Of a stretch of DNA of 9,675 bases, positions 39 to 9,675 are shown piece by piece. The translations under genes were made by a program, and so were the position numbers. The notes under the pieces are model-generated. The model did no database searches, had not been told where the DNA came from, and worked only from the letters and a program-made list of their open reading frames with translations. This stretch comes from a virus (Duplodnaviria > Heunggongvirae > Uroviricota > Caudoviricetes), in IMG/VR virus record IMGVR_UViG_2698536471_000020, positions 1 through 9,675 of that record. The stretch is one strand, 5' to 3'. Numbering within the stretch: the stretch's first letter is position 1; every line of letters starts with the position of its first letter.

Positions 39-253
39 TTTTTTGTAAAGAATCTGTCACGCTAAAAGATGTCGAACAAAAATTAACCACAACCATCATC
101 TTTTTTGCATCAACCACATTAAAAACAACAGGTTACACACATGATGATGATGACGATAAAATCACAAAAATGCGCTTTTTTCCGCGCCGCCCGCCCCGTG
201 TTCATACCCACCCCACCAGGAGGACCCGCAAAAAAGGCGGCTGGTGCCGCCTT
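39..253. repeat. Intergenic module copy A (homologous to 2575-2790); includes the capsid-gene terminator
   Basis: Co-linear shared blocks with copy B: ttttttgtaaa, tcgaaca vs tcgacac, triplet run (ATG)4 at 141-152 vs GTG/ATG run at 2675-2689, aaaaatgcgc, tttttccgcgcc, ccgccccgtg, ccaccaggag, A-tract plus GC hairpin. Weaker similarity may extend to position 1 (window edge). Confidence 0.6.
230..253 (-). terminator. Rho-independent terminator after the protease-capsid gene
   Basis: Minus strand reads AA GGCGGC acca GCCGCC TTTTTT G (stems at 236-241 and 246-251), a few nt after the stop codon at 258-260. Confidence 0.7.
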
Positions 254-257
254 GTTG

Positions 258-2147
258 TCAGAGTGAATCTGTCCCGCCTGATTTGACCATACCGCGATAA
301 TCCAGAGCTGCCACACCTGCATCAATACGGACTTTCCAGGCCACGCCGTCAACGATAAAACCTTCCTGCTGTTCAAGGTAAGGCTCGTCATTGCCATCAA
401 GATAAGCCACCTCGATTGTGTCCGTTCCCTGTGCGGAAAGCATGTACCATTGTTTTTCGCTGATATCATCAAGGCGGGGATCGACGATGATATCAAGTAG
501 CTTGTGGTACGGGTTAAAGATCCCGCTGTTTTTATCAGCCCCGAAAGGTGCGGTTGAGTTAATCATCTGCAACGCGCGATCTTCCAGTGCTGCCGGAACT
601 AAAAGGAATTTAGGCGCAATATTCAGCACTTCGCCATTTTTGTCCTTCTGTGTGCGCATCAGGTGACGTGCTGCACTAAGTCCCGGTGTTGTCAGTCCTG
701 CTTCAATCAGGTTGCTGTGTTTTTTGTCAAACAGCGTTATTCCGTCAGAAAGTTTTACGTTGCCTGTAAGCACCAGATTAACCAGATTTCCCACCGTTCT
801 TGATGCTGCACGGCCCATAGCCATTGGCACCGTTGATAACTGATCAAGGTCATCATTGATTATCGCCTGGCGGGTAATGCTGAAAATATTCCCGTAAGTA
901 GCCAGCGCGATGGGTTCACCGCGATCGCTGGTGGTGATGTATTTATATTCTGCCCCTTCCGGAACTTTGTTTAACGTTGAGAAGCCATTCATACCAACGC
1001 GGCGGGCTTCCCGGAAGTTTGAAAGGGAACCTTTTTTCGTCCACTGGCGGAATGTTTCGCCGCTGTGCTCCCAGCCTGCAAGCACTGATTTTTCAGCGCC
1101 ACCAGCAAGGATATCGGTAAAATCGCTGCTGCTGTGGGTGAATGCCGCGTTTACTATCTGCGAGCGTGTGCTGTAGCTGCCCGTGCTTATACCACGATGG
1201 GTTAATGATGCCTGTGCCATATCGAAAAGGCTCATCATGGCGTAAGGATTACCGCGTTCGGCCCGTTCGTGACCAAGACGCGCATTAAGCCCCTGACGCA
1301 TGGCATCGCCAGTTATATTGCCGTTATCCGTGTACGCGTAGTAAAGATTTGCGGGGGTGGTTTTGTTTGTTGGCGTTGATTCTTTACCCATAGCGAGTAA
1401 AAGGCGTTCGCGTGCATTCTCAACGCTACATTCTGAATCCGCAAGACAACTTATAGCCAGGTCGTTATATCTTCCGTTGAAGGTGCCAAACAATTCACGG
1501 ATGCCGTTAAGTCGTTCCTGTTCGCCACTGCCAGTTTTCTGGCTGATCATGCTTTTAATTTTTTCCGGCATATTTGAAAAATCTCCGATTCGTTTTGATT
1601 CAATTCGGGCCATTGCTGTAATCGCGGGTATAACCTCATCTGCGAAACCGTTAGCCTTACACTCATTGCCATCCATCCAGGTTTCCGCCTCCATCATGGA
1701 GGTGATTTCCTGTTTGCTCCTGCCCGTTCTTCCGGCATAGGTTTCTGCCATCGTGTCGCCCAGCTTGTCCATCAGATCAGCAAAGCGGCGAACGTCGCCC
1801 GACACTCCGGCAGTAACACCACGGGGGGCATGTATCATCATCATCGCGTTTTCAGGCATAACGATATGATCTCCACACATGGCAATAAACGAGGCCATAG
1901 AAGCCGCCATGCCTTCAATGTGTACGATTTTTTTTGCCGGATGATTTTTCAGAGCGTTATAGATAGCCAGCCCTTCAAAGATGTCGCCACCAGGTGAATG
2001 GATGCGAAGATGGATTTCAGACGCATTACCACACGCGTTGATCTCGTCAGTAAGTGCCGATGCTTTTACACCGTACCCGCCGATCTCGTCATAAATGCGC
2101 ACATAGACAACATCTGCCATAGCCTTAATGGAAAACCATGTTTTCAT
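258..2147 (-). CDS. Prohead protease (ClpP/S14-like) fused to a scaffold-like linker and a major capsid protein domain (HK97-type, inferred)
   Basis: 629-aa ORF. N-terminal ~190 aa carries ClpP-type signatures (GMAASMAS serine motif, MMMIHAPRG histidine motif). The C-terminal ~300 aa reads as a capsid-like domain by composition and position, not by a specific motif. Start overlaps the upstream small ORF stop (ATGA). Confidence 0.75.
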   Translation of the reverse strand: MKTWFSIKAMADVVYVRIYDEIGGYGVKASALTDEINACGNASEIHLRIHSPGGDIFEGLAIYNALKNHPAKKIVHIEGMAASMASFIAMCGDHIVMPENAMMMIHAPRGVTAGVSGDVRRFADLMDKLGDTMAETYAGRTGRSKQEITSMMEAETWMDGNECKANGFADEVIPAITAMARIESKRIGDFSNMPEKIKSMISQKTGSGEQERLNGIRELFGTFNGRYNDLAISCLADSECSVENARERLLLAMGKESTPTNKTTPANLYYAYTDNGNITGDAMRQGLNARLGHERAERGNPYAMMSLFDMAQASLTHRGISTGSYSTRSQIVNAAFTHSSSDFTDILAGGAEKSVLAGWEHSGETFRQWTKKGSLSNFREARRVGMNGFSTLNKVPEGAEYKYITTSDRGEPIALATYGNIFSITRQAIINDDLDQLSTVPMAMGRAASRTVGNLVNLVLTGNVKLSDGITLFDKKHSNLIEAGLTTPGLSAARHLMRTQKDKNGEVLNIAPKFLLVPAALEDRALQMINSTAPFGADKNSGIFNPYHKLLDIIVDPRLDDISEKQWYMLSAQGTDTIEVAYLDGNDEPYLEQQEGFIVDGVAWKVRIDAGVAALDYRGMVKSGGTDSL

Positions 2148-2371
2148 AGCCAGACCCCTAACGTTGCCCTGTACCAGTATTCAACCGCGCTGCGTGTGAT
2201 TTGTCCTTTCGTGGGTACTGGCATACCCGGGTGATTATCTTTGATGAACTGCTGATAGCGTTCGATCTTCTCCATAGTTCCGGCGTCTATGTGTACCGTG
2301 GCACTTTTATCCGGCTTTCTGGTGTTGTTCTCTGGCATAAATCCGCCTCCGTTTTGATTAACGGGCATCAT
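2144..2371 (-). CDS. Small hypothetical protein, translationally coupled to the protease-capsid gene (more likely start at 2338, giving 64 aa)
   Basis: ORF stop overlaps capsid ATG (ATGA at 2144-2147). The internal ATG at 2336-2338 is preceded by GGAGG at 7-nt spacing, whereas the ATG at 2371 has no clear SD. Function unknown. Confidence 0.45.
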   Translation of the reverse strand: MMPVNQNGGGFMPENNTRKPDKSATVHIDAGTMEKIERYQQFIKDNHPGMPVPTKGQITRSAVEYWYRATLGVWL

Positions 2372-2574: not shown

Positions 2575-2790
2575 TGTTTTTTGTAAATGTTTTCGGGAAC
2601 GTTCCGGTGATGAACAAAAAACAACCTGATTCGACACTAAAAATTTTTATTTCTCAACATATCAATAACTTATAGTGGTGGTGATGGTGCCATAAAAATC
2701 AAAAAATGCGCCTTTTTCCGCGCCCCTCCGCCCCGTGGACAGGCCACCCCCACCAGGAGTACCTACAAAAAAGCCGGATTGCTCCGGCTT
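2575..2790. repeat. Intergenic module copy B (homologous to 39-253); includes the ssb-operon terminator
   Basis: Same block order as copy A; contains triplet run GTGGTGGTGATGGTG (2675-2689), conserved G-rich block on the minus strand (CTCCTGGTGGGGGTGG...CACGGGGCGG...GCGCGGAAAAAGGCGCATTTTTTG) and terminator hairpin 2773-2788. Confidence 0.6.
2767..2790 (-). terminator. Rho-independent terminator after the SSB-like gene
   Basis: Minus strand reads AA GCCGGA gcaa TCCGGC TTTTTT G; SSB-like stop is at 2805-2807. Confidence 0.7.
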
Positions 2791-2804: not shown

Positions 2805-3227
2805 TTAAAACGGTATGTTATCCCCGTACGGATCATCGTTACCCGCCTGTTGTTTTGCCCTGTTCAGTGCGTCAGTAGCCTGCCCCTGCTGGCCTTTTTT
2901 GCCGCCCGGTCGCGCCGTTCTCGCACTGATTACGCTGTCTGCGATAACCTGCCAGCCCTGCCGCGTTTCGCCGTTCTGGCCTGTCCACTGGCTTACCTGC
3001 ATGTTACCCGCCACGCTCACCAGCTCGCCTTTGCGGTGTTTTGCCAGTGCGTCGGCCTGTCTGCCAAACGCCAGGACGGATAACCACATCGTAGCCGTTC
3101 CGTCATCTGCCTGGCTGCACGGCAGGGGGACAGCCATACTCGCCATCGTCATTTGTGTGCCCTTGCTGGTGGTCTTTAACTGTGGGTCAGCCACCAGCCG
3201 CCCGTAAGCCGCTATCTGTGCTGTCAT
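2805..3227 (-). CDS. ssb: Single-stranded DNA-binding protein (SSB-like, OB fold with acidic C-terminal tail)
   Basis: 140-aa ORF. The pattern GRLVADPQLK...WLSVLAFGRQADALAKHRKGELVSVAGNMQVSQWTGQNGETRQGWQVIADSV parallels the E. coli SSB OB-fold core; Gly/Gln-rich linker; C-terminus DDPYGDNIPF resembles the canonical SSB DDDIPF tip. ATG overlaps the upstream ORF stop (ATGA). Confidence 0.75.
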   Translation of the reverse strand: MTAQIAAYGRLVADPQLKTTSKGTQMTMASMAVPLPCSQADDGTATMWLSVLAFGRQADALAKHRKGELVSVAGNMQVSQWTGQNGETRQGWQVIADSVISARTARPGGKKGQQGQATDALNRAKQQAGNDDPYGDNIPF

Positions 3228-3502
3228 GATTCCACCTCTACGTTTTTAACGTTGATGGTTGTCACCTGTTCAGCTTCCGCAATCTCCCGCTCTGTCAGCG
3301 TGGCAAAATTTGCCGCCGTCGTGGTCATGAATGCGCTTATCAGGTCGGGATGTTCCTTCGCGTATCCTTCCCCCGCGTGGCGGTCTATCGTTCTGATTGC
3401 CACCTTTAAAGCGTGCTCTGTCATGTCTAACGCGCGATATTTCGGTTCTGTTCTGTCTCTGTGTTTTTTGAGTGATTTATTAAATTTCCCTGAAGTGTGC
3501 AT
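3224..3502 (-). CDS. Hypothetical protein (92 aa from the ATG at 3502), translationally coupled to ssb-like
   Basis: The track ORF extends to 3553, but the ATG at 3500-3502 is preceded by GAGGGGG and the longer form would run into the iteron array. Function unknown. Confidence 0.45.
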   Translation of the reverse strand: MHTSGKFNKSLKKHRDRTEPKYRALDMTEHALKVAIRTIDRHAGEGYAKEHPDLISAFMTTTAANFATLTEREIAEAEQVTTINVKNVEVES

Positions 3503-3550
3503 ATTTATTTTTACCCCCTCGTTTAAAAAGTTTTGAGTTGTGCCTCCCCC

Positions 3551-3775
3551 CATCTACCCATCTACCCGAATGCTCATCATGTCAGTAATGGCGCGGCTTT
3601 CAGCGGGTAGATAGCTTTTTTGGCTCCTCTACCTGCCGTCTACCCTGCTACCTGAAACTGATAAAATCAGGTAGAAGAGGTAGAGAGCTTTTATTAGCCT
3701 TCTACCTGGCCCTCTACCCACTTATCATGTTGAATAATATACGTTTATTTCATTCAGGTAGATGGGGTAGAGGGC
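3551..3775. repeat. Iteron array / putative replication origin
   Basis: At least 11 copies of the hexamer GGTAGA/TCTACC in alternating orientation, in pairs: TCTACC at 3553, 3561, 3628, 3639, 3701, 3713; GGTAGA at 3606, 3670, 3679, 3757, 3766; plus near-copy GCTACC at 3647. Longer unit GGTAGAKRGCTTTT three times; AT-rich spacers. Lies directly 3' of the primase-helicase gene. Confidence 0.65.
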
Positions 3776-3787
3776 TTTTACAAAAAA

Positions 3788-5542
3788 TTATAAAAACGCG
3801 TCGCAATCGTCTGTTGTAATTGCGTTGGTCTGCGTTACTCCCTTAACTTTTCGCGTAATATATTCATGCCCGTAAACTTTCGCCGCTGGCTTCATGGCCT
3901 TGCTGAACTCAGCCACGTTTAGCGGTTTGCTCCTGCCTGCGTATGCCATAAACGCCAGATAGACGCGGTAAAGGCTGTTCCTGGTCGTGTACTTCACTGA
4001 ATCACCACCGCCACCCATCATCAGGCCGCGCGCTTCCTCCAGAAAATTCAGGAACTGGCAAAACTCAATAACCGGATCCGTCTGTTGCTTTATTGCCAGT
4101 GCTTCATCACCGTCACGCTGTTCCAGTAGTAAAGCCCTCGCCTTTTCAGGGTCGGTAAAGTTCGCCAGCAAGCGGCGGATAATAACGGGGATTTCAGCCG
4201 CAATTTTTTCCGGTAGTTCCCTGTCTTTTTCGGCCTCACTAACAATATTGTCGAAACGGAAAATCACGCGACGACGTGCCACACCTCCGGCCCGTTCGGT
4301 GAATATCATCGGGTTATTATTGGTCGCCAGCACCACCGCCCTGATTACCGCCGTGAAACGCTTTTCATATTTCGGGTTTATTTCCACGGGGTCGCCGCCC
4401 GTGATTTTCTTGATGCCCGTTCCTTCGCCTGTATATTTCGGCTGGTCTGCTAGGACGATAAGACGACTCCCGACAACCTGCGCACGTCCACCAGCATCAT
4501 CAAGCGATGTCATTTCAGCGCTTACCGTGTTCTGTTTCCCTGCCAGAAGGCTGGCTATGTGTGTGAATGTACTTTTACCGCTCCCGCCGTCTCCGGTGGC
4601 CTCAATAAACATCTGCCAGTCGTACCGGTTCGCCATAATCATGTACAGCGCGGCACATATACGCATCATCTTGCGCGGGTCTTTTCCGGCTGCGTGCTCA
4701 AGCCATTTATGAAAGTTTGGCGCGTTGTCGCGGATATTCTCCCCTGGTGCTGGTGGCGTGTACTCAATGCCGTTGTGCGTGGTGATCCAGTTCTCCGGCG
4801 TGTGCGGGGAAAATTCCCCCGTTTTCAGGTCAAGCGCACCATTGGCGAACGGCAGCAAATCGCCGGACGGCTCGCCCATTGGTTCGGCAATAACTTTTAA
4901 CGCTTCCACGGCGTTATTGATTACGCGCTTGCTGAAAGTGGCCCTGTGCTCTGAATAGATCGCCACCATTTCGCGGCTAAGTTCCATTGTGCTGACCGGA
5001 CACCATACCCCGCCGCGCCATACGTGAACAATTTCACTTTCAGGATGTACGCAAACGCCATCAAAGCGATCGGCAAGCAGCTGCGCGCGCTCACTGTCCG
5101 CCATCTGCGAAAGTTGCGCCTTTTGCTTTACCGGAAGCTCAATGACCAGACCATCAGAAAGATTCTGGCGTTCACGGGCCAGGTATTCGCGCCAGTTCTG
5201 CACCTCCTTGCCGTGCATACCCTCAGGATAAAAATTTGCATCCTGTACACCAGCCGCCGCCAGCTTTTGACCAATCGCCTTTATCATTACTGGTGCAAGA
5301 TATCCGGCCCTGAATATGCGCACGGATTTTCTGCCTTCCGGCACAATTTGCAGCTTATCCAGTTCTGATAACTGCTGCTCCCCAAGCCACACAGGAGGCT
5401 CATTATCTCCGGCCATACGCGCGTCATGTTCCTGCCATTGTTTTGCGTGTGACCAGGCATCACTACCCGCAAAAATAATGACTTCTGTTTCTTTGTGTTT
5501 TATGCCGCGTGACTGCTGTTTTACGTTCGGTGCCAGTTTCAT
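3788..5542 (-). CDS. Replication protein: primase / SF3-type helicase (P4 alpha C-terminal / D5-like family)
   Basis: 584-aa ORF with Walker A P-loop GDGGSGKST and downstream hydrophobic stretch LIVLAD (Walker B-like); size and position (after alpA and small genes, before origin iterons) as for satellite pri/rep genes. ATG overlaps the upstream ORF stop (ATGA at 5539-5542). Confidence 0.8.
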   Translation of the reverse strand: MKLAPNVKQQSRGIKHKETEVIIFAGSDAWSHAKQWQEHDARMAGDNEPPVWLGEQQLSELDKLQIVPEGRKSVRIFRAGYLAPVMIKAIGQKLAAAGVQDANFYPEGMHGKEVQNWREYLARERQNLSDGLVIELPVKQKAQLSQMADSERAQLLADRFDGVCVHPESEIVHVWRGGVWCPVSTMELSREMVAIYSEHRATFSKRVINNAVEALKVIAEPMGEPSGDLLPFANGALDLKTGEFSPHTPENWITTHNGIEYTPPAPGENIRDNAPNFHKWLEHAAGKDPRKMMRICAALYMIMANRYDWQMFIEATGDGGSGKSTFTHIASLLAGKQNTVSAEMTSLDDAGGRAQVVGSRLIVLADQPKYTGEGTGIKKITGGDPVEINPKYEKRFTAVIRAVVLATNNNPMIFTERAGGVARRRVIFRFDNIVSEAEKDRELPEKIAAEIPVIIRRLLANFTDPEKARALLLEQRDGDEALAIKQQTDPVIEFCQFLNFLEEARGLMMGGGGDSVKYTTRNSLYRVYLAFMAYAGRSKPLNVAEFSKAMKPAAKVYGHEYITRKVKGVTQTNAITTDDCDAFL

Positions 5543-5838
5543 TTTTTACCCCTGAATACGTTAAGCATCTTTTTTATTTCCTGAATATTGGCGCGTGCTT
5601 TCTCCCTGCTGGTGGGCTTGCTGCGTTGCGCTGCCTGCACCAGAGAAAAATCACGGTCGAACTGATAAACGGGCATCACGCAATCATATTCGTAACCTTC
5701 ACGGAGGTAAGTTACGCACCGTCCCGCCACGCCCTTAATCATTACCGTGCCGCCGTACTGGTCGCGGTAAATATCACCGCGCGTAAATTTAGGGTGAGTG
5801 TTGCCACTGGCAGTTAAGCCAGAATATTTAAGTTTCAT
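5539..5838 (-). CDS. Hypothetical protein (99 aa), translationally coupled to the primase gene
   Basis: ORF with GGAGA Shine-Dalgarno about 9-10 nt upstream of the ATG; ATGA overlap with primase start. No motif recognised. Confidence 0.55.
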   Translation of the reverse strand: MKLKYSGLTASGNTHPKFTRGDIYRDQYGGTVMIKGVAGRCVTYLREGYEYDCVMPVYQFDRDFSLVQAAQRSKPTSREKARANIQEIKKMLNVFRGKK

Positions 5839-6294: not shown

Positions 6295-6496
6295 AAAGCA
6301 TCCCCTGAATATTCGTGTTAATCATTCCGGCACGTTTTGTGATTTCCTGTAATGATTCCCTTGTGGCGACAATTGCTTCATCTGGTAAGTGGTAATTACA
6401 CACCACGCGACCTTTATCCACATTGACCAGTAGCTGCCCTGTGAATTTCTCACGAAACTGAATGCGGTTAAGGTCAGTAAGTGACAGATTAATCAT
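6284..6496 (-). CDS. Hypothetical protein (70 aa from the ATG at 6496), start overlaps the icd-like stop
   Basis: Strong SD AGGAGG 6 nt upstream of the ATG at 6494-6496; ATGATTAA start/stop overlap with the icd-like gene. The track ORF start at 6538 lies inside icd-like and lacks an SD. Confidence 0.5.
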   Translation of the reverse strand: MINLSLTDLNRIQFREKFTGQLLVNVDKGRVVCNYHLPDEAIVATRESLQEITKRAGMINTNIQGMLYAQ

Positions 6497-6677
6497 GGCG
6501 CACCTCCTGACGAATACGGGCGGCAAATACAGCAACACAACCGGACGGGCAACGGTTACGCGCTTCGCGTTCCGTCCAGGCGGTTACGTGGATGATTTGA
6601 TGTTCTGACGCGCCAAAGATGATAAAGCGCCAGAGAAAGGCGGTTTGAGAATGTACAAGGGTAGGGATAGTAGCCAT
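6489..6677 (-). CDS. Icd-like small protein (host cell division inhibitor Icd-like family, 62 aa)
   Basis: It is the C-terminal tail of the 416-codon track ORF, but a strong SD (GAGGAGG) sits 8 nt upstream of the internal ATG at 6675-6677. Sequence MATIPTLVHSQTAFLWRFIIFGASEHQIIHVTAWTEREARNRCPSGCVAVFAARIRQEVRHD fits the remembered Icd-like pattern (F-W-RF ... ERxAR ... FAARxP/Q-E); family assignment is from memory, not a search. Confidence 0.6.
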   Translation of the reverse strand: MATIPTLVHSQTAFLWRFIIFGASEHQIIHVTAWTEREARNRCPSGCVAVFAARIRQEVRHD

Positions 6678-6839
6678 GTTGGCAGCCTCCTCAGTGTGGT
6701 TAAGATAACCGCCACCGGAAACGCCAATTTCGCTGGTGGCGGACTGTACAGGGTTGGCGTAACCGGACACTGAAGAAACCGGCGCGGATTGCTCCGCCCC
6801 CGTACAGCCCACCATTGATAAGGTGTGACTATGCGGCAC

Positions 6840-6861
6840 AAAAAAACACGCGGGGCGCGTG
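6840..6861 (-). terminator. Rho-independent terminator inside the leader upstream of icd-like
   Basis: Minus strand reads CACGCG ccc CGCGTG followed by TTTTTTT (plus-strand A-run 6840-6846, stems 6847-6852 and 6856-6861). Confidence 0.7.
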
Positions 6862-7103
6862 TTATGCGCTTCAGTTTTGCCCAGGACGCCAATCCCGGCA
6901 CCCGTTTTATGAGGTGCGCGGGAATCATAGCCATTTTTGCTGGTGGCGATCAACTGGTTTTTTACACCCGCTTTATTCAGGTTGTGTGAGTCCCGCCCTT
7001 GCGGGTGTGTGGTATGATTTCTCATAGCTACCTCGATACTTTCGCTATCGTTGGTGGTCAGAGGCTGCGAAAGGACGGCAATCCTTTTCAGCCTCGTTTG
7101 CAT

Positions 7104-7207
7104 TGAGTGATAAACACTCAGCTGGATTCCAGTATAATCACTAAGTGGAATCCACTTCAAGCGTTTTGTTTTGGTCTTTTTCGTGTATACTGGATTCCAG
7201 TAATCAC
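7104..7207. promoter_or_regulatory. Divergent promoter/operator region with three TGGAWTCCA palindromes
   Basis: Palindromes CTGGATTCCAG (7122-7132), AAGTGGAATCCACTT (7143-7157), CTGGATTCCAG (7190-7200); extra inverted repeat TGAGTG-ataaa-CACTCA (7104-7120). Minus-strand promoter TTGAAG (7160-7155), 18-nt spacer, TATACT (7136-7131) overlaps the plus-strand TATAAT (7133-7138). Direct repeat CTGGATTCCAGTA(T)AATCAC at 7122-7142 and 7190-7207. Confidence 0.6.
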
Positions 7208-7221
7208 AAAGGGAACCAGAA

Positions 7222-7401
7222 ATGGAAAGAGACCATATCAATAACAAATCACAGAAATTACAGGCTCGCGCCCCGCATGAAGTTGTTGAGGCTATGGAGC
7301 AAGTAAAAGAAACAGGCGAGAGCACTGCGCAATTTATCGTTACAGCCATGCGAGGCGAGATCAAACGCCGCCAGCGCCGTAAGGCCAAAGAATCAGAATA
7401 A
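7222..7401 (+). CDS. Small ribbon-helix-helix-like DNA-binding protein (59 aa; below the ORF-track size cut-off)
   Basis: ATG at 7222 with AGGGA about 8 nt upstream, TAA at 7399-7401. Translation MERDHINNKSQKLQARAPHEVVEAMEQVKETGESTAQFIVTAMRGEIKRRQRRKAKESE has an RHH-like layout (basic strand RAPHEVV, two short helices, basic tail). Sits immediately downstream of the operator palindromes. Confidence 0.45.
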   Translation: MERDHINNKSQKLQARAPHEVVEAMEQVKETGESTAQFIVTAMRGEIKRRQRRKAKESE

Positions 7402-7458
7402 TCACTATCAGCGCCGTGGTGTGAGGTACTACGGCGCATTGCTTTACAGGGCAGTACC

Positions 7459-7686
7459 ATGACTAACAACACACTATCACCAATACAAGACACGCAAACG
7501 CAAGATGATGAAATCATCCGGCAAAGGCAGTCAGAAGCCTGCGCCAGAGTTGAGGAAGAACTAACCAGAACAAAAATACCACCACCAGCGCCGCGCTTAA
7601 TGCCACCAGAAAAATTTGCCCTTGAAGATTTTGTCGAGAAATACCCACGGCGGTTAAAAGCCACTAAAAACCGACCGCCTGGCTGA
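7459..7686 (+). CDS. Hypothetical protein (75 aa), possibly co-transcribed with the RHH-like gene
   Basis: ORF with protein-like charged composition but a weak SD. A hairpin GCGCCGT (7411-7417) / ACGGCGC (7431-7437) lies between it and the RHH gene. Convergent with alpA. Confidence 0.3.
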   Translation: MTNNTLSPIQDTQTQDDEIIRQRQSEACARVEEELTRTKIPPPAPRLMPPEKFALEDFVEKYPRRLKATKNRPPG

Positions 7687-7832
7687 TAGCCTTGTCCACC
7701 AGCTACGGCGGTGCTAAGATTGAAAGCTGCATAAGTCATGAAATAAACTCCTTAGCGGTGCATACGCGCCGCTTCTTTCTTCACGAACAACTACAAACAA
7801 AAACACGGACGGAATTTAAAGAATGAATATTC

Positions 7833-8027
7833 TTAATTGACGCGTTCGCGGTTTTTGACCCACGCCACAACCTCAGACTTAACCCAGCCAACAGAACGAC
7901 CGCCGAGACTGATACGGGAAGGGAAGCGGCCCTGCTTTTCCATCTCGTAACGAGTTGTGCGGCAAACGCCTGTTAGCTCTCTGCATTCTTTTTCGCGGAT
8001 TACACGATCTTCATTTATTTCGCGCAT
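7833..8027 (-). CDS. alpA: AlpA-family transcriptional regulator / excisionase-like protein
   Basis: 64-aa ORF; HTH followed by GGRSVGWVKSEVVAWV matches the AlpA (Phage_AlpA) pattern; located directly downstream of the integrase on the same strand. Confidence 0.8.
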   Translation of the reverse strand: MREINEDRVIREKECRELTGVCRTTRYEMEKQGRFPSRISLGGRSVGWVKSEVVAWVKNRERVN

Positions 8028-8360
8028 AAAAAGCCCTACATAAAATTACGTATAGAAATTTTTGTTTCGCTGTGGATATACGGAAAGAGATTACTTCTTA
8101 GCTTTTCTTACCTCTTAAATTGAAGGCGTAACCTTGCCAAAAGCTATGCTCGCCAAGGTTCGCAAGGGTTCGTTGTTGTTCATAAAATCGTTGCACACCA
8201 GGAAAGACAATTCAACATTAAAATTCCCTCTACAGTGAGGGATAATTAAAAAAACAAATTAAAACAGTCACATAAAAGCATGCACTTTGAAATAAAGGAA
8301 AATATTAAAACTCAAGTAGACAATCGCTGTTTTCAAATTTTTTCAATACTTGACACATAT

Positions 8361-8393
8361 AAATCGTCGATATTTGCCGATATTCGACGATTT
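8361..8393. promoter_or_regulatory. Inverted repeat in the int-alpA intergenic region (candidate regulator binding site)
   Basis: Perfect 10-bp arms AAATCGTCGA (8361-8370) and TCGACGATTT (8384-8393), extending to about 13-bp arms with one indel; consensus TTGACA at 8350-8355; region 8040-8436 is AT-rich. Confidence 0.4.
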
Positions 8394-8436
8394 ATTTTAG
8401 AGGGCCATTTTTCGCAAGAAAAACAGCCGTAATTTG

Positions 8437-9675
8437 TCAAGAATTTTGAGAGTAAATTCGCGGGGTCATAACAACGATTTTTTCATCATTGTTCTGGAGA
8501 AGCTCGAGACGCTCAACCCATAGATTAAGAGCGTCACGTTTTGCATCGAGATAACGGGAGTGATTATAGACTCGTTGCACTCCTGGCAACTGGTGCGCGG
8601 TTAGCTGCTCCACTACATGAGGATCCACGCCTAAATCGTTCAGCATCGTTGTAAACGTGTGCCGGATGTCGTGCAACGTCCAGGGGGCTTGATTAATGCG
8701 TCTGTGTGCCGTTCTTCCGTACTCTGATACAGATGATTGCCCTTTCAGTTCTCCGAGCAATAAGCCTGTATGCCTGTTCTGCTCAACCAGCTGCGTGACG
8801 AACGGCAAGATCGCTTCCGGTATAGGCCGGAATATTGCTACCTTCGTTTTGCTGTGCTCCTTCGGAACGGTCCAGAGCATTTCTTTAAAATCCCATTCCT
8901 GGACCTCAGAGCGTCTTAGCTCAGTGGTACGGCATCCGAAGACAATCAGGAGGCGAATCAGGGCGCTGTAGTACGGTGGGTAAATTTTTTCATCCAGGGC
9001 GCGGAGTAATTCCCCAAGCTCCTTGTTTGTTAGTACGCGCTGGCTTATTTCTGCTTTTTTCCCAACATCACCGACAACCATATCATCAAGAACGTTGCTG
9101 ATTGCGTAGCGTCGTTTGCGGCAGTACTTAAGCGCCTGCTTGCATACCTGCAACAAAAAACCTGCTGATACCGGATTACGCTTAGCAAGCTGATCAAAAC
9201 AGGTCAGCCAGTGGCGTAGCTCGCATTTTTCCAGCGGCATAGCACCAATCTGGCTGATTATGTGTGTATTGATCCGGCTCTTCAGAGATTCGTAGTCTGT
9301 GCGCTTTTCCTTCGCGTACGATTCAAGCCAGTAAGTGAGCGCTTCCTTAACCGTAACAGGTGATAACGCTTCCTGTACGGTGTGATTAAGCTCATGGCGT
9401 GGATTTTTCCCCTCAGCAAGCCAGGCGCGACACTGCGCCGCTTTTTCCCTGGCTGCTTTCAGGCTCAAATCAGGATAATTTCCCAGCCTCAGACGTTCAG
9501 GGGATACCTTCCTGCCTGTTCCGGCCCTGTAAGTGAAATACCAGGTTAACAGGCCATTGGTTGAATGCCTTACGCTAAGGTTGCCACCATCATTAAAAAA
9601 GGTGTTTTTTGTGGTTGGTGATCCGCTTAATTTTCGTAAAAGAGTGTCGCTAAGTCTATGAATTGCCCTGCTCAT
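8437..9675 (-). CDS. int: Tyrosine-type site-specific integrase (P4-type, arm-binding N-terminal domain)
   Basis: 412-aa ORF with catalytic-domain signatures in the translation: GCRTTELRRSE (box I Arg), LHDIRHTFTT (H-x-x-R), VYNHSRYLD (catalytic Tyr region). The ATG is the last 3 nt of the window, so the true start and the att site cannot be verified. Confidence 0.85.
   Translation of the reverse strand: MSRAIHRLSDTLLRKLSGSPTTKNTFFNDGGNLSVRHSTNGLLTWYFTYRAGTGRKVSPERLRLGNYPDLSLKAAREKAAQCRAWLAEGKNPRHELNHTVQEALSPVTVKEALTYWLESYAKEKRTDYESLKSRINTHIISQIGAMPLEKCELRHWLTCFDQLAKRNPVSAGFLLQVCKQALKYCRKRRYAISNVLDDMVVGDVGKKAEISQRVLTNKELGELLRALDEKIYPPYYSALIRLLIVFGCRTTELRRSEVQEWDFKEMLWTVPKEHSKTKVAIFRPIPEAILPFVTQLVEQNRHTGLLLGELKGQSSVSEYGRTAHRRINQAPWTLHDIRHTFTTMLNDLGVDPHVVEQLTAHQLPGVQRVYNHSRYLDAKRDALNLWVERLELLQNNDEKIVVMTPRIYSQNS

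Follow-up and report, generated by a model that had tools for sequence, protein, structure and literature searches.

A prohead protease/major capsid protein fusion gene with a candidate internal translation start in a small Escherichia coli phage satellite

We find that the 9,675-nucleotide stretch of DNA analyzed here, referred to as the window (IMG/VR record IMGVR_UViG_2698536471_000020), is most of a small integrative island with the architecture of Gram-negative phage-inducible chromosomal islands (PICIs) of the EcCICFT073 type (Fillol-Salom 2018 ISME J; Fillol-Salom 2019 Mol Cell), that is, an ordinary E. coli phage satellite. We hold with good confidence that its 629-aa ORF is a functional member of the NCBIfam family NF045540 in the Late zone of an island of ~10.6 kb, and that it would act by the mechanism proposed below. 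The fusion is a known gene type (NF045540, Gifsy-2 type) that has already been catalogued, here in a known kind of satellite, and the finding matters little by itself. The initial annotation of this DNA, whose reading of the domains is correct and whose interpretation is partly supported overall, had taken the fusion to be unusual for a small element; the family and the kind of satellite are both known, and single head genes have been recorded in small elements as well. The single detail of the fusion gene that is possibly new is a probable second translation start at Met193, to which the pattern of conservation points. Island-borne copies appear to form a clade of their own, which is a modest addition to the known gene type.

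Domains and fold of the fusion protein

The uninterrupted 629-aa frame on which the initial annotation was built is present, with an ATG start and 629 codons plus a stop in the ORF list, and we can add that it is read from the minus strand (Table 1). The protease match in Pfam (CLP_protease, E 3.9e-33) spans residues 41-173 and the capsid match (Phage_capsid_4, E 1.2e-54) spans residues 330-623; both are far above chance level. The protein reaches 889.8 bits with the model NF045540 (scaf_prot_MCP1, ClpP-like prohead protease/major capsid protein fusion protein), for which the cut-off is 475, while the sister model NF045541 stays at 382.8 bits, under its cut-off of 525; NF045542 (head maturation protease, ClpP-related) matches residues 16-172 with 201 bits against a cut-off of 120, and PHROG 133 and 4523 ("major head and protease protein") are matched as well. 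The protein combines the features of the NF045540 type, namely a ClpP domain with its Ser and His, an HK97-fold capsid domain and one unbroken frame, and the same 629-aa sequence is already present in NCBI and UniRef, where it is named as a protease/capsid fusion.

Table 1. Positions of the features in the window
Feature	Position	Strand	Basis
Fusion ORF, 629 aa: prohead protease + scaffold-like linker + major capsid protein	258..2147	minus	ORF list, NF045540, PHROG 133/4523
ClpP-like (S14) protease domain, residues ~1-175	1623..2147	minus	Pfam, NF045542, PDB ClpP matches
Ser83 codon	1899-1901	minus	protease domain
His106 codon	1830-1832	minus	protease domain
Glu155 codon	1683-1685	minus	protease domain
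Linker / presumed scaffold, residues ~176-295	1263..1622	minus	Pfam-free, helical in model
Candidate internal RBS (GGAG 1583-1586) + in-frame ATG, Met193 (1569-1571)	1569..1586	minus	conservation, 75 homologues
HK97-fold major capsid domain (predicted), residues ~296-629	261..1262	minus	Pfam, profile search, AF2 + Foldseek
Terminator-like hairpin: 8-bp GC-rich stem, 4-nt loop, U6	229..253	minus	sequence read, RNA fold
cos-like site 1, cosN-like core GGGCGGCGCGGA at 181-192	39..234	minus	similarity to Stx2_95
Small ORF, 64 aa (GGAGG-preceded ATG) or 75 aa (first ATG)	2144..2338	minus	ORF list, PHROG 4934
cos-like site 2, diverged copy with its own hairpin before it, after ssb	2644..2771	minus	similarity, repeat, sequence
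Replication zone	2805..5838	minus	Pfam, NCBIfam, PHROG
SSB	2805-3227	minus	replication zone
Hypothetical	3224-3553	minus	replication zone
D5_N/P4-type primase	3788-5542	minus	replication zone
DUF4222	5539-5838	minus	replication zone
P4-type immunity RNA region: C4 + isrK	6732..6917	minus	Rfam
C4 antisense RNA	6732-6819	minus	Rfam, 77.6 bits, above gathering score
isrK	6841-6917	minus	Rfam, 66 bits, above gathering score
Integration zone	7833..9675	minus	AlpA + integrase
AlpA	7833-8027	minus	Pfam Phage_AlpA
Tyrosine integrase	8437-9675	minus	Pfam Phage_integrase + Arm-DNA-bind_3

The ClpP motifs that had been read directly from the translation are both present, GMAASMAS at residues 79-86 (1890-1913) and MMMIHAPRG at residues 102-110 (1818-1844), and a PDB search finds ClpP structures at E 3e-15. 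Ser83 and His106 are unchanged in all 80 aligned homologues and Glu155 is kept in 77 of them; the latter, aligned by hand to ClpP Asp171, appears to be the third residue of the triad. The protease part reaches a pLDDT of ~60-84 in the full-length AF2 model, and the domain would be expected to cut off both itself and the scaffold. The sequence gave no assignable cleavage site.

The same full-length model (629 aa, 12 close sequences) has an overall pLDDT of 43, with the capsid part below 50, and was unfit for a fold search. Modeling of residues 262-629 with 85 diverse sequences gave a pLDDT of 82.8 and a pTM of 0.81, and a Foldseek search of this model against the PDB returned 236 matches at E <= 1e-3, the top 50 of which are all HK97-fold shell proteins, among them HK97 Prohead II, phage D3, SaPI1 capsids and encapsulins. 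A profile search was needed since phmmer with the capsid part alone was only marginal against the PDB (E 4e-4), and a capsid-domain profile made from 45 diverse homologues matched solved capsid proteins of the Mu-GpT type at E 4e-10. The model confidence, the shell-protein matches and the profile match therefore support a predicted HK97 fold for the C-terminal part, the outcome on which the initial annotation had made its capsid-like reading of this region depend.

Between the two domains, residues ~176-295 matched no Pfam domain. The low-confidence full-length AF2 model places helices at 195-255, and the indel map shows that island copies are without a Pro/Ala/Gln-rich spacer of ~25 aa that the phage copies have after residue 207. 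By analogy with Gifsy-2, the HK97 delta domain and lambda Nu3, this linker would be the scaffold.

A single frame of this kind might in principle come from an assembly or sequencing artefact that fused separate protease and capsid genes, and the initial annotation had asked for a hidden frameshift to be looked for. We give this explanation virtually no chance and regard it as excluded. Several assemblies made independently, from NCBI, ENA and Logan, contain the identical 629-aa protein. Of 144 complete E. coli genomes with the gene, 143 have it at full length (all but 3 of the 144 copies being at least 95% identical). Among species-representative genomes, 80 have homologues of 628-680 aa, and the fusion frame is unbroken in hundreds of independent assemblies. 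A curated family model exists for the fusion, and complete phage genomes carry it too. The only related case, and the only support that we found for an artefact, is the sole exception among the 144 genomes, H57, whose split copy is annotated as two genes.

Selection on the gene points the same way for each of its parts. The dN/dS (Nei-Gojobori) is 0.04 against an island copy that is 92% identical (dS 0.09), and between island clades the protease, linker and capsid parts, each computed by itself, give 0.12-0.25, with the linker at 0.2-0.25. All three parts, catalytic residues included, are thus under purifying selection.

The surrounding island and its relatives

Gram-negative PICIs are divided in PMC10111431 into an Integration zone, a Bro/immunity zone with C4 and isrK, a Replication zone and a Late zone. 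The island has the features by which such elements are recognized: an inward-facing integrase and AlpA at one end, att repeats, a primase module of its own and no lysis, tail or full head module. In the relative L001 (E. coli 2011C-4251), clpS and cspD flank the same island, at whose ends stand imperfect direct repeats of 73 nt, spaced 10,554 bp apart; the window does not reach the island's far end. Portal, terminase, tail and lysis genes are absent from L001 and from L007-L011, as judged from annotation and, for portal and terminase, from tblastn of the island loci. This island clade yielded no homologue of Rpp or TerS, and clade-B relatives carry a DUF1441 TerS homologue. The primase has the P4-family C-terminal domain (TIGR01613) and a C4-type RNA is present; the search for a P4-like satellite, over part of the small ORFs, found no Sid, Psu or Delta in the window or in L001.

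The stop codon of the small ORF upstream overlaps the start of the fusion gene (ATGA). This ORF belongs to PHROG 4934 (E 9e-51), of unknown function, is annotated as 195 bp in L001 and has a counterpart in clade-B islands that is 38% identical. The 93-aa protein encoded downstream was considered as the phage head-tail gene of the same length, to which it has no similarity; it is an island backbone gene common to CFT073. Starting 5 nt past the fusion stop codon is a hairpin that is terminator-like by shape only: the consensus terminator scan did not list it on the minus strand, and its fold z-score of -1.36 against shuffles is not significant.

Just past this hairpin lies a segment with 90% identity over 199 bp to DNA of the Stx2a phage Stx2_95, where the matched segment ends 42 bp ahead of terS. 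A second segment has 76% identity over 135 bp to the same Stx2_95 DNA and corresponds to the direct repeat D1/D3 of L001. The cos-like segment is also found in Stx1/Stx2 phages, Fels-1 and mEp460, and in an O157:H7 prophage it sits between the lysis genes and the DUF1441 terS. The core GGGCGGCGCGGA fits 10 of the 12 bases of GGGCGGCGCGCT, the cohesive end of a phage with a Gifsy-2-type head (PMC12315714). Because of the matches upstream of terS and this cohesive-end match, we read both segments as candidate cos sites matched to helpers with the same type of head gene, with cosN placed by similarity. A search for the lambda cosN (GGGCGGCGACCT) gave a chance-level match within the primase gene only, and the lambda left end has no match in the window but does have one in the CFT073 island. 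The record of mEp460 begins at the terS ATG and was uninformative as to physical cos ends. A strict linkage between capsid cassette and cos type is weakened by the Nissle 1917 PICI, in which an E/D cassette stands beside a 91.5% copy of the Stx-type cos-like segment.

We sorted the 80 species-representative loci by their neighboring genes. Phage-type loci, with terS-terL-W-portal directly upstream, make up 72 of the 80, and their fusion proteins are 43-52% identical to the 629-aa copy; the other 8 are island-type (L014-L019, L049 and L060), with identities of 57-61%. A midpoint-rooted NJ tree, built without bootstrap, groups the 11 island-borne copies in one clade that has all phage copies outside. 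The hosts of this clade are Escherichia, Kluyvera, Trabulsiella, Pectobacterium, Rahnella, Buttiauxella and Moellerella. Island copies measure 628-646 aa, below the phage median of 657 aa, and 10 of the 11 clade-diagnostic substitutions fall in the capsid domain. Lambdoid-type copies (Stx2_95 and mEp460-type) are 52-56% identical to the 629-aa copy; full-length homologues follow terS-terL-W-portal in Stx2_95 (52%), in Pseudomonas phage D14L (48%) and in the complete genome of mEp460.

In L015 and L018 the island is inserted within the prophage's own fusion gene, which it splits into an upstream part (residues 1-~127) and a downstream part (residues 104-655), and it carries its own intact, divergent copy. 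The insertion fits the published helper-embedded PICI site C:CLP_protease:110. This layout could favor late-gene capture by an embedded PICI, for instance by imprecise excision, and such capture by PICIs has been proposed (PMC10111431); the fusion gene would then be a late gene taken from a helper prophage and carried as passive cargo, with no role in the island. This is unlikely because of the selection data, and we rate it as very improbable: the low dN/dS extends over all domains (0.04-0.25), the gene is intact in nearly every E. coli genome that carries it, and the island clade spans several genera at 57-62% identity and must therefore have been long maintained.

A candidate internal start and the role of the gene

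Codons 188-189 of the fusion gene spell a Shine-Dalgarno (SD) core in all 75 homologues compared, as GAG-GAx, AAG-GAx, CAG-GAx or GGA-GAx, and Met193-Pro194 is likewise unchanged in 75 of 75. Residue 188 itself varies (E, K, Q or G) despite the fixed SD core. All 73 of the E, K and Q codons at position 188 end in G, against gene-wide G-ending fractions of 0.40 for E, 0.29 for K and 0.60 for Q; the median of this fraction over 37 comparable columns is 0.43, and the runner-up column reaches 0.79. This bias at a synonymous site is evidence for selection. Over the whole gene alignment, this is the only SD core kept in at least 95% of the sequences, and synonymous sites around it are scrambled. None of the other internal Met codons (97, 158, 179, 200, 253 and 305) has a conserved SD. 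The SD core and ATG193 are 10-14 nt apart, a spacing towards the upper limit of what is functional. The conservation makes a second translation start at Met193 probable and suggests a product of 437 aa and ~48 kDa, a scaffold-capsid protein without the protease.

From the single frame, the initial annotation had concluded that protease and capsid would have to be made in a 1:1 ratio. The frame is indeed unbroken, but the conserved candidate start weakens the obligatory 1:1 stoichiometry. If real, the internal start would explain how the fused gene escapes making one protease per shell subunit, and it would extend the nested-gene scheme of lambda and HSV-1 to protease-scaffold-capsid fusions.

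We propose that induction of a helper would lead to excision and replication of the island. Translation from the first ATG, where the start overlaps the stop of the small upstream ORF, would then give a minority protease-scaffold-capsid protein, and translation from Met193 the protease-less scaffold-capsid protein. Both would assemble into procapsids on helper portals, in which the ClpP domain would remove itself and the scaffold to leave an HK97-fold shell protein of ~35 kDa. Helper terminase would package island DNA from a cos-like site into these heads, which would be joined to helper tails.

What the protein does in the infected cell, whether it forms the shell, mixes with the helper capsid or sets the head size, can be read in several ways, and size redirection, interference and shell supply are all possible. 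The island might encode a satellite-specific capsid that forms smaller shells (e.g., T=3 or T=4) for its ~10.6 kb, or that forces the helper capsid into such shells as Ccm does for SaPIbov5, excluding a helper genome of ~46 kb. We think this doubtful, given that in EcCICFT073, the closest island studied, the packaged DNA has phage length and the capsid gene can be dispensed with; moreover, four copies of the island at 10.55 kb each, or 42 kb, would by inference fill ~91% of a 46.3-kb helper head, and the sequence carries no predictor of triangulation number.

The protein could also act as a decoy that poisons helper assembly, either by assembling together with the 52-56% identical helper capsid or by cleaving helper head proteins. 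PICIs generally interfere with their helpers, the gene is conserved though PICI capsid genes are reported to be dispensable for transfer in related islands, and the divergence from helper copies is moderate, such that subunits could interact but possibly misfit. We nonetheless consider a decoy improbable: deletion of the capsid gene or of the decoration gene in EcCICFT073 left interference unrelieved and did not bring back lambda plaques, and purifying selection on three domains and on the catalytic residues suits a working morphogenetic protein better.

What capsid genes do in Gram-negative PICIs is acknowledged to be an open question, for which the window island is a clean test case: mass spectrometry can easily tell its capsid protein from the helper versions, to which it is only ~52-56% identical. 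The helpers are presumed to be Stx-converting phages and their lambdoid relatives in pathogenic E. coli, whose spread the island may influence.

Comparison with known systems

The fusion arrangement was reportedly described by Effantin et al. in 2010 (Virology 402:355; PMID 20427067) for Salmonella phage Gifsy-2, as a "tripartite capsid gene". The order is the same there, with an N-terminal ClpP-like protease, a central ~100-200 residues and a C-terminal HK97-fold capsid, and the phage versions follow terS-terL-W-portal, whereas the window copy stands alone in a satellite island.

EcCICFT073 shares with the window island the order int-AlpA-immunity RNA-DUF4222-primase-SSB-late genes-93-aa protein, and at the island end the two encode 93-aa proteins with 82% identity. 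Both have two cos or cos-like sites, C4/isrK RNAs and a capsid gene in the Late zone. At the equivalent position EcCICFT073 has two separate genes, one for a lambda E-like capsid protein and one for a D-like decoration protein, with RppA and a lambda-type cosN, whereas the window island has the fusion gene and a Stx/Gifsy-type cos-like site, and no Rpp/TerS homologue.

SaPIbov5 Ccm is likewise a satellite-encoded HK97-fold capsid homologue that has diverged from that of the helper, but it has no fused protease, and the window gene shows no sign of size redirection. According to Alqurainy et al. (2022 preprint, 10.1101/2022.09.08.507074), capsid-forming PICIs (cf-PICIs) bring every protein that capsid formation and packaging require; the window island differs from them in having a single fusion gene, without portal, terminase or connectors. 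As a tentative idea that we hold to be rather unlikely, this island lineage may be an intermediate between classical PICIs and cf-PICIs, which would obtain its own protease, scaffold and shell (perhaps of smaller T) from one nested gene, with Met193 setting the protease-to-shell ratio, and would take portal, terminase, connectors and tails from Stx/Gifsy-type lambdoid helpers.

A nested protease/scaffold scheme is described in bioRxiv 10.64898/2026.09.13.751334. In lambda C/Nu3, HSV-1 UL26/UL26.5 and HFTV1 gp17/gp17.5, an in-frame start after the protease likewise yields an abundant assembly protein without the protease. The fusion gene is unlike these three in that its nested product would also contain the capsid protein, and initiation at Met193 is deduced from conservation. 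In this respect the predicted nested scaffold-capsid product resembles HK97 gp5 with its delta domain.

Islands embedded in the helper capsid gene

At two of the 80 species-representative loci that carry the protease-capsid fusion gene (L015 and L018), an island of the window's family sits inside the prophage's own fusion gene, which it splits at about residue 104-127, while the island keeps an intact, divergent copy of its own. These islands are helper-embedded PICIs, of the same kind as the class described previously (PMC10111431). One complete E. coli genome (NZ_AP045176.1, 2438758-2439791) has a disrupted fusion gene: only 55% of the gene is matched, in two pieces, and the annotation lists two genes under the names "phage major capsid protein" and "Clp protease".

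The methionine codon at position 193 is invariant across 75 homologues from islands and phages, and the Shine-Dalgarno core before it is kept at the nucleotide level; on this pattern of conservation, the internal start may give a nested scaffold-capsid product.

Coordinates of features in the window and in related loci
Feature	Location	Strand	Remarks
Islands inside prophage fusion gene	L015:3218-16146; L018:2642-15782		
93-aa conserved protein, 99-aa ORF, PerC-family regulator	L001:7881-9000		beyond window position 1
161-aa DUF1441 protein, clade-B islands	L007:12171-12656		between fusion gene and 93-aa gene
Internal ATG (Met193) with Shine-Dalgarno core	window 1569-1586	-	conserved across homologues
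C4 antisense RNA and isrK, adjoining	window 6732-6917	-	77.6 bits (C4), 66 bits (isrK)
416-aa ORF, mechanical ORF list	window 6489-7739	-	overlaps C4/isrK; low-complexity translation
59-aa ORF	window 7222-7401	+ (opposite)	length and position match YlcI/YnfO family protein annotated in L001
Two cos-like copies, hairpin before each	window 39-234; 2644-2771	-	
Small ORF before capsid cassette, 64-69 aa	window 2144-2338; L007:9795-10004; L002:463-669	- (window)	one locus for each of three island types

Immunity region and island end

The C4 and isrK RNAs are a P4-type immunity RNA pair with an Icd-like ORF downstream. The 416-aa ORF is almost certainly not a gene, given its overlap with both RNAs and its low-complexity translation; relatives have only small genes annotated in this region. 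Judged by L001, a relative in E. coli 2011C-4251, the island extends ∼1.7 kb beyond window position 1. The PerC-family protein at that end is a homologue of a virulence regulator and is frequent in E. coli PICIs.

Capsid cassette and cos-like sites

In each of the three island types, the capsid cassette directly follows the small ORF, which is assigned to PHROG 4934 (of unknown function) and is patterned as a strand followed by a helix (for example, TVHIDAGTMEKIERY); the window's copy overlaps the start of the fusion gene. The DUF1441 protein of clade-B islands, 48% identical to the small terminase of the Stx2a phage Stx2_95, is absent from the window's island clade. A related PICI in E. coli Nissle 1917 (chromosome 3292006-3304181) has an E/D-type capsid cassette, with separate capsid and decoration genes, and encodes a 180-aa small terminase; the Stx-type cos-like segment recurs, as a 91.5% copy, between its ssb and capsid genes.

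In the window, both the small ORF and the fusion gene lie between the two cos-like copies, which are ∼2.5 kb apart. EcCICFT073 has two cos sites.
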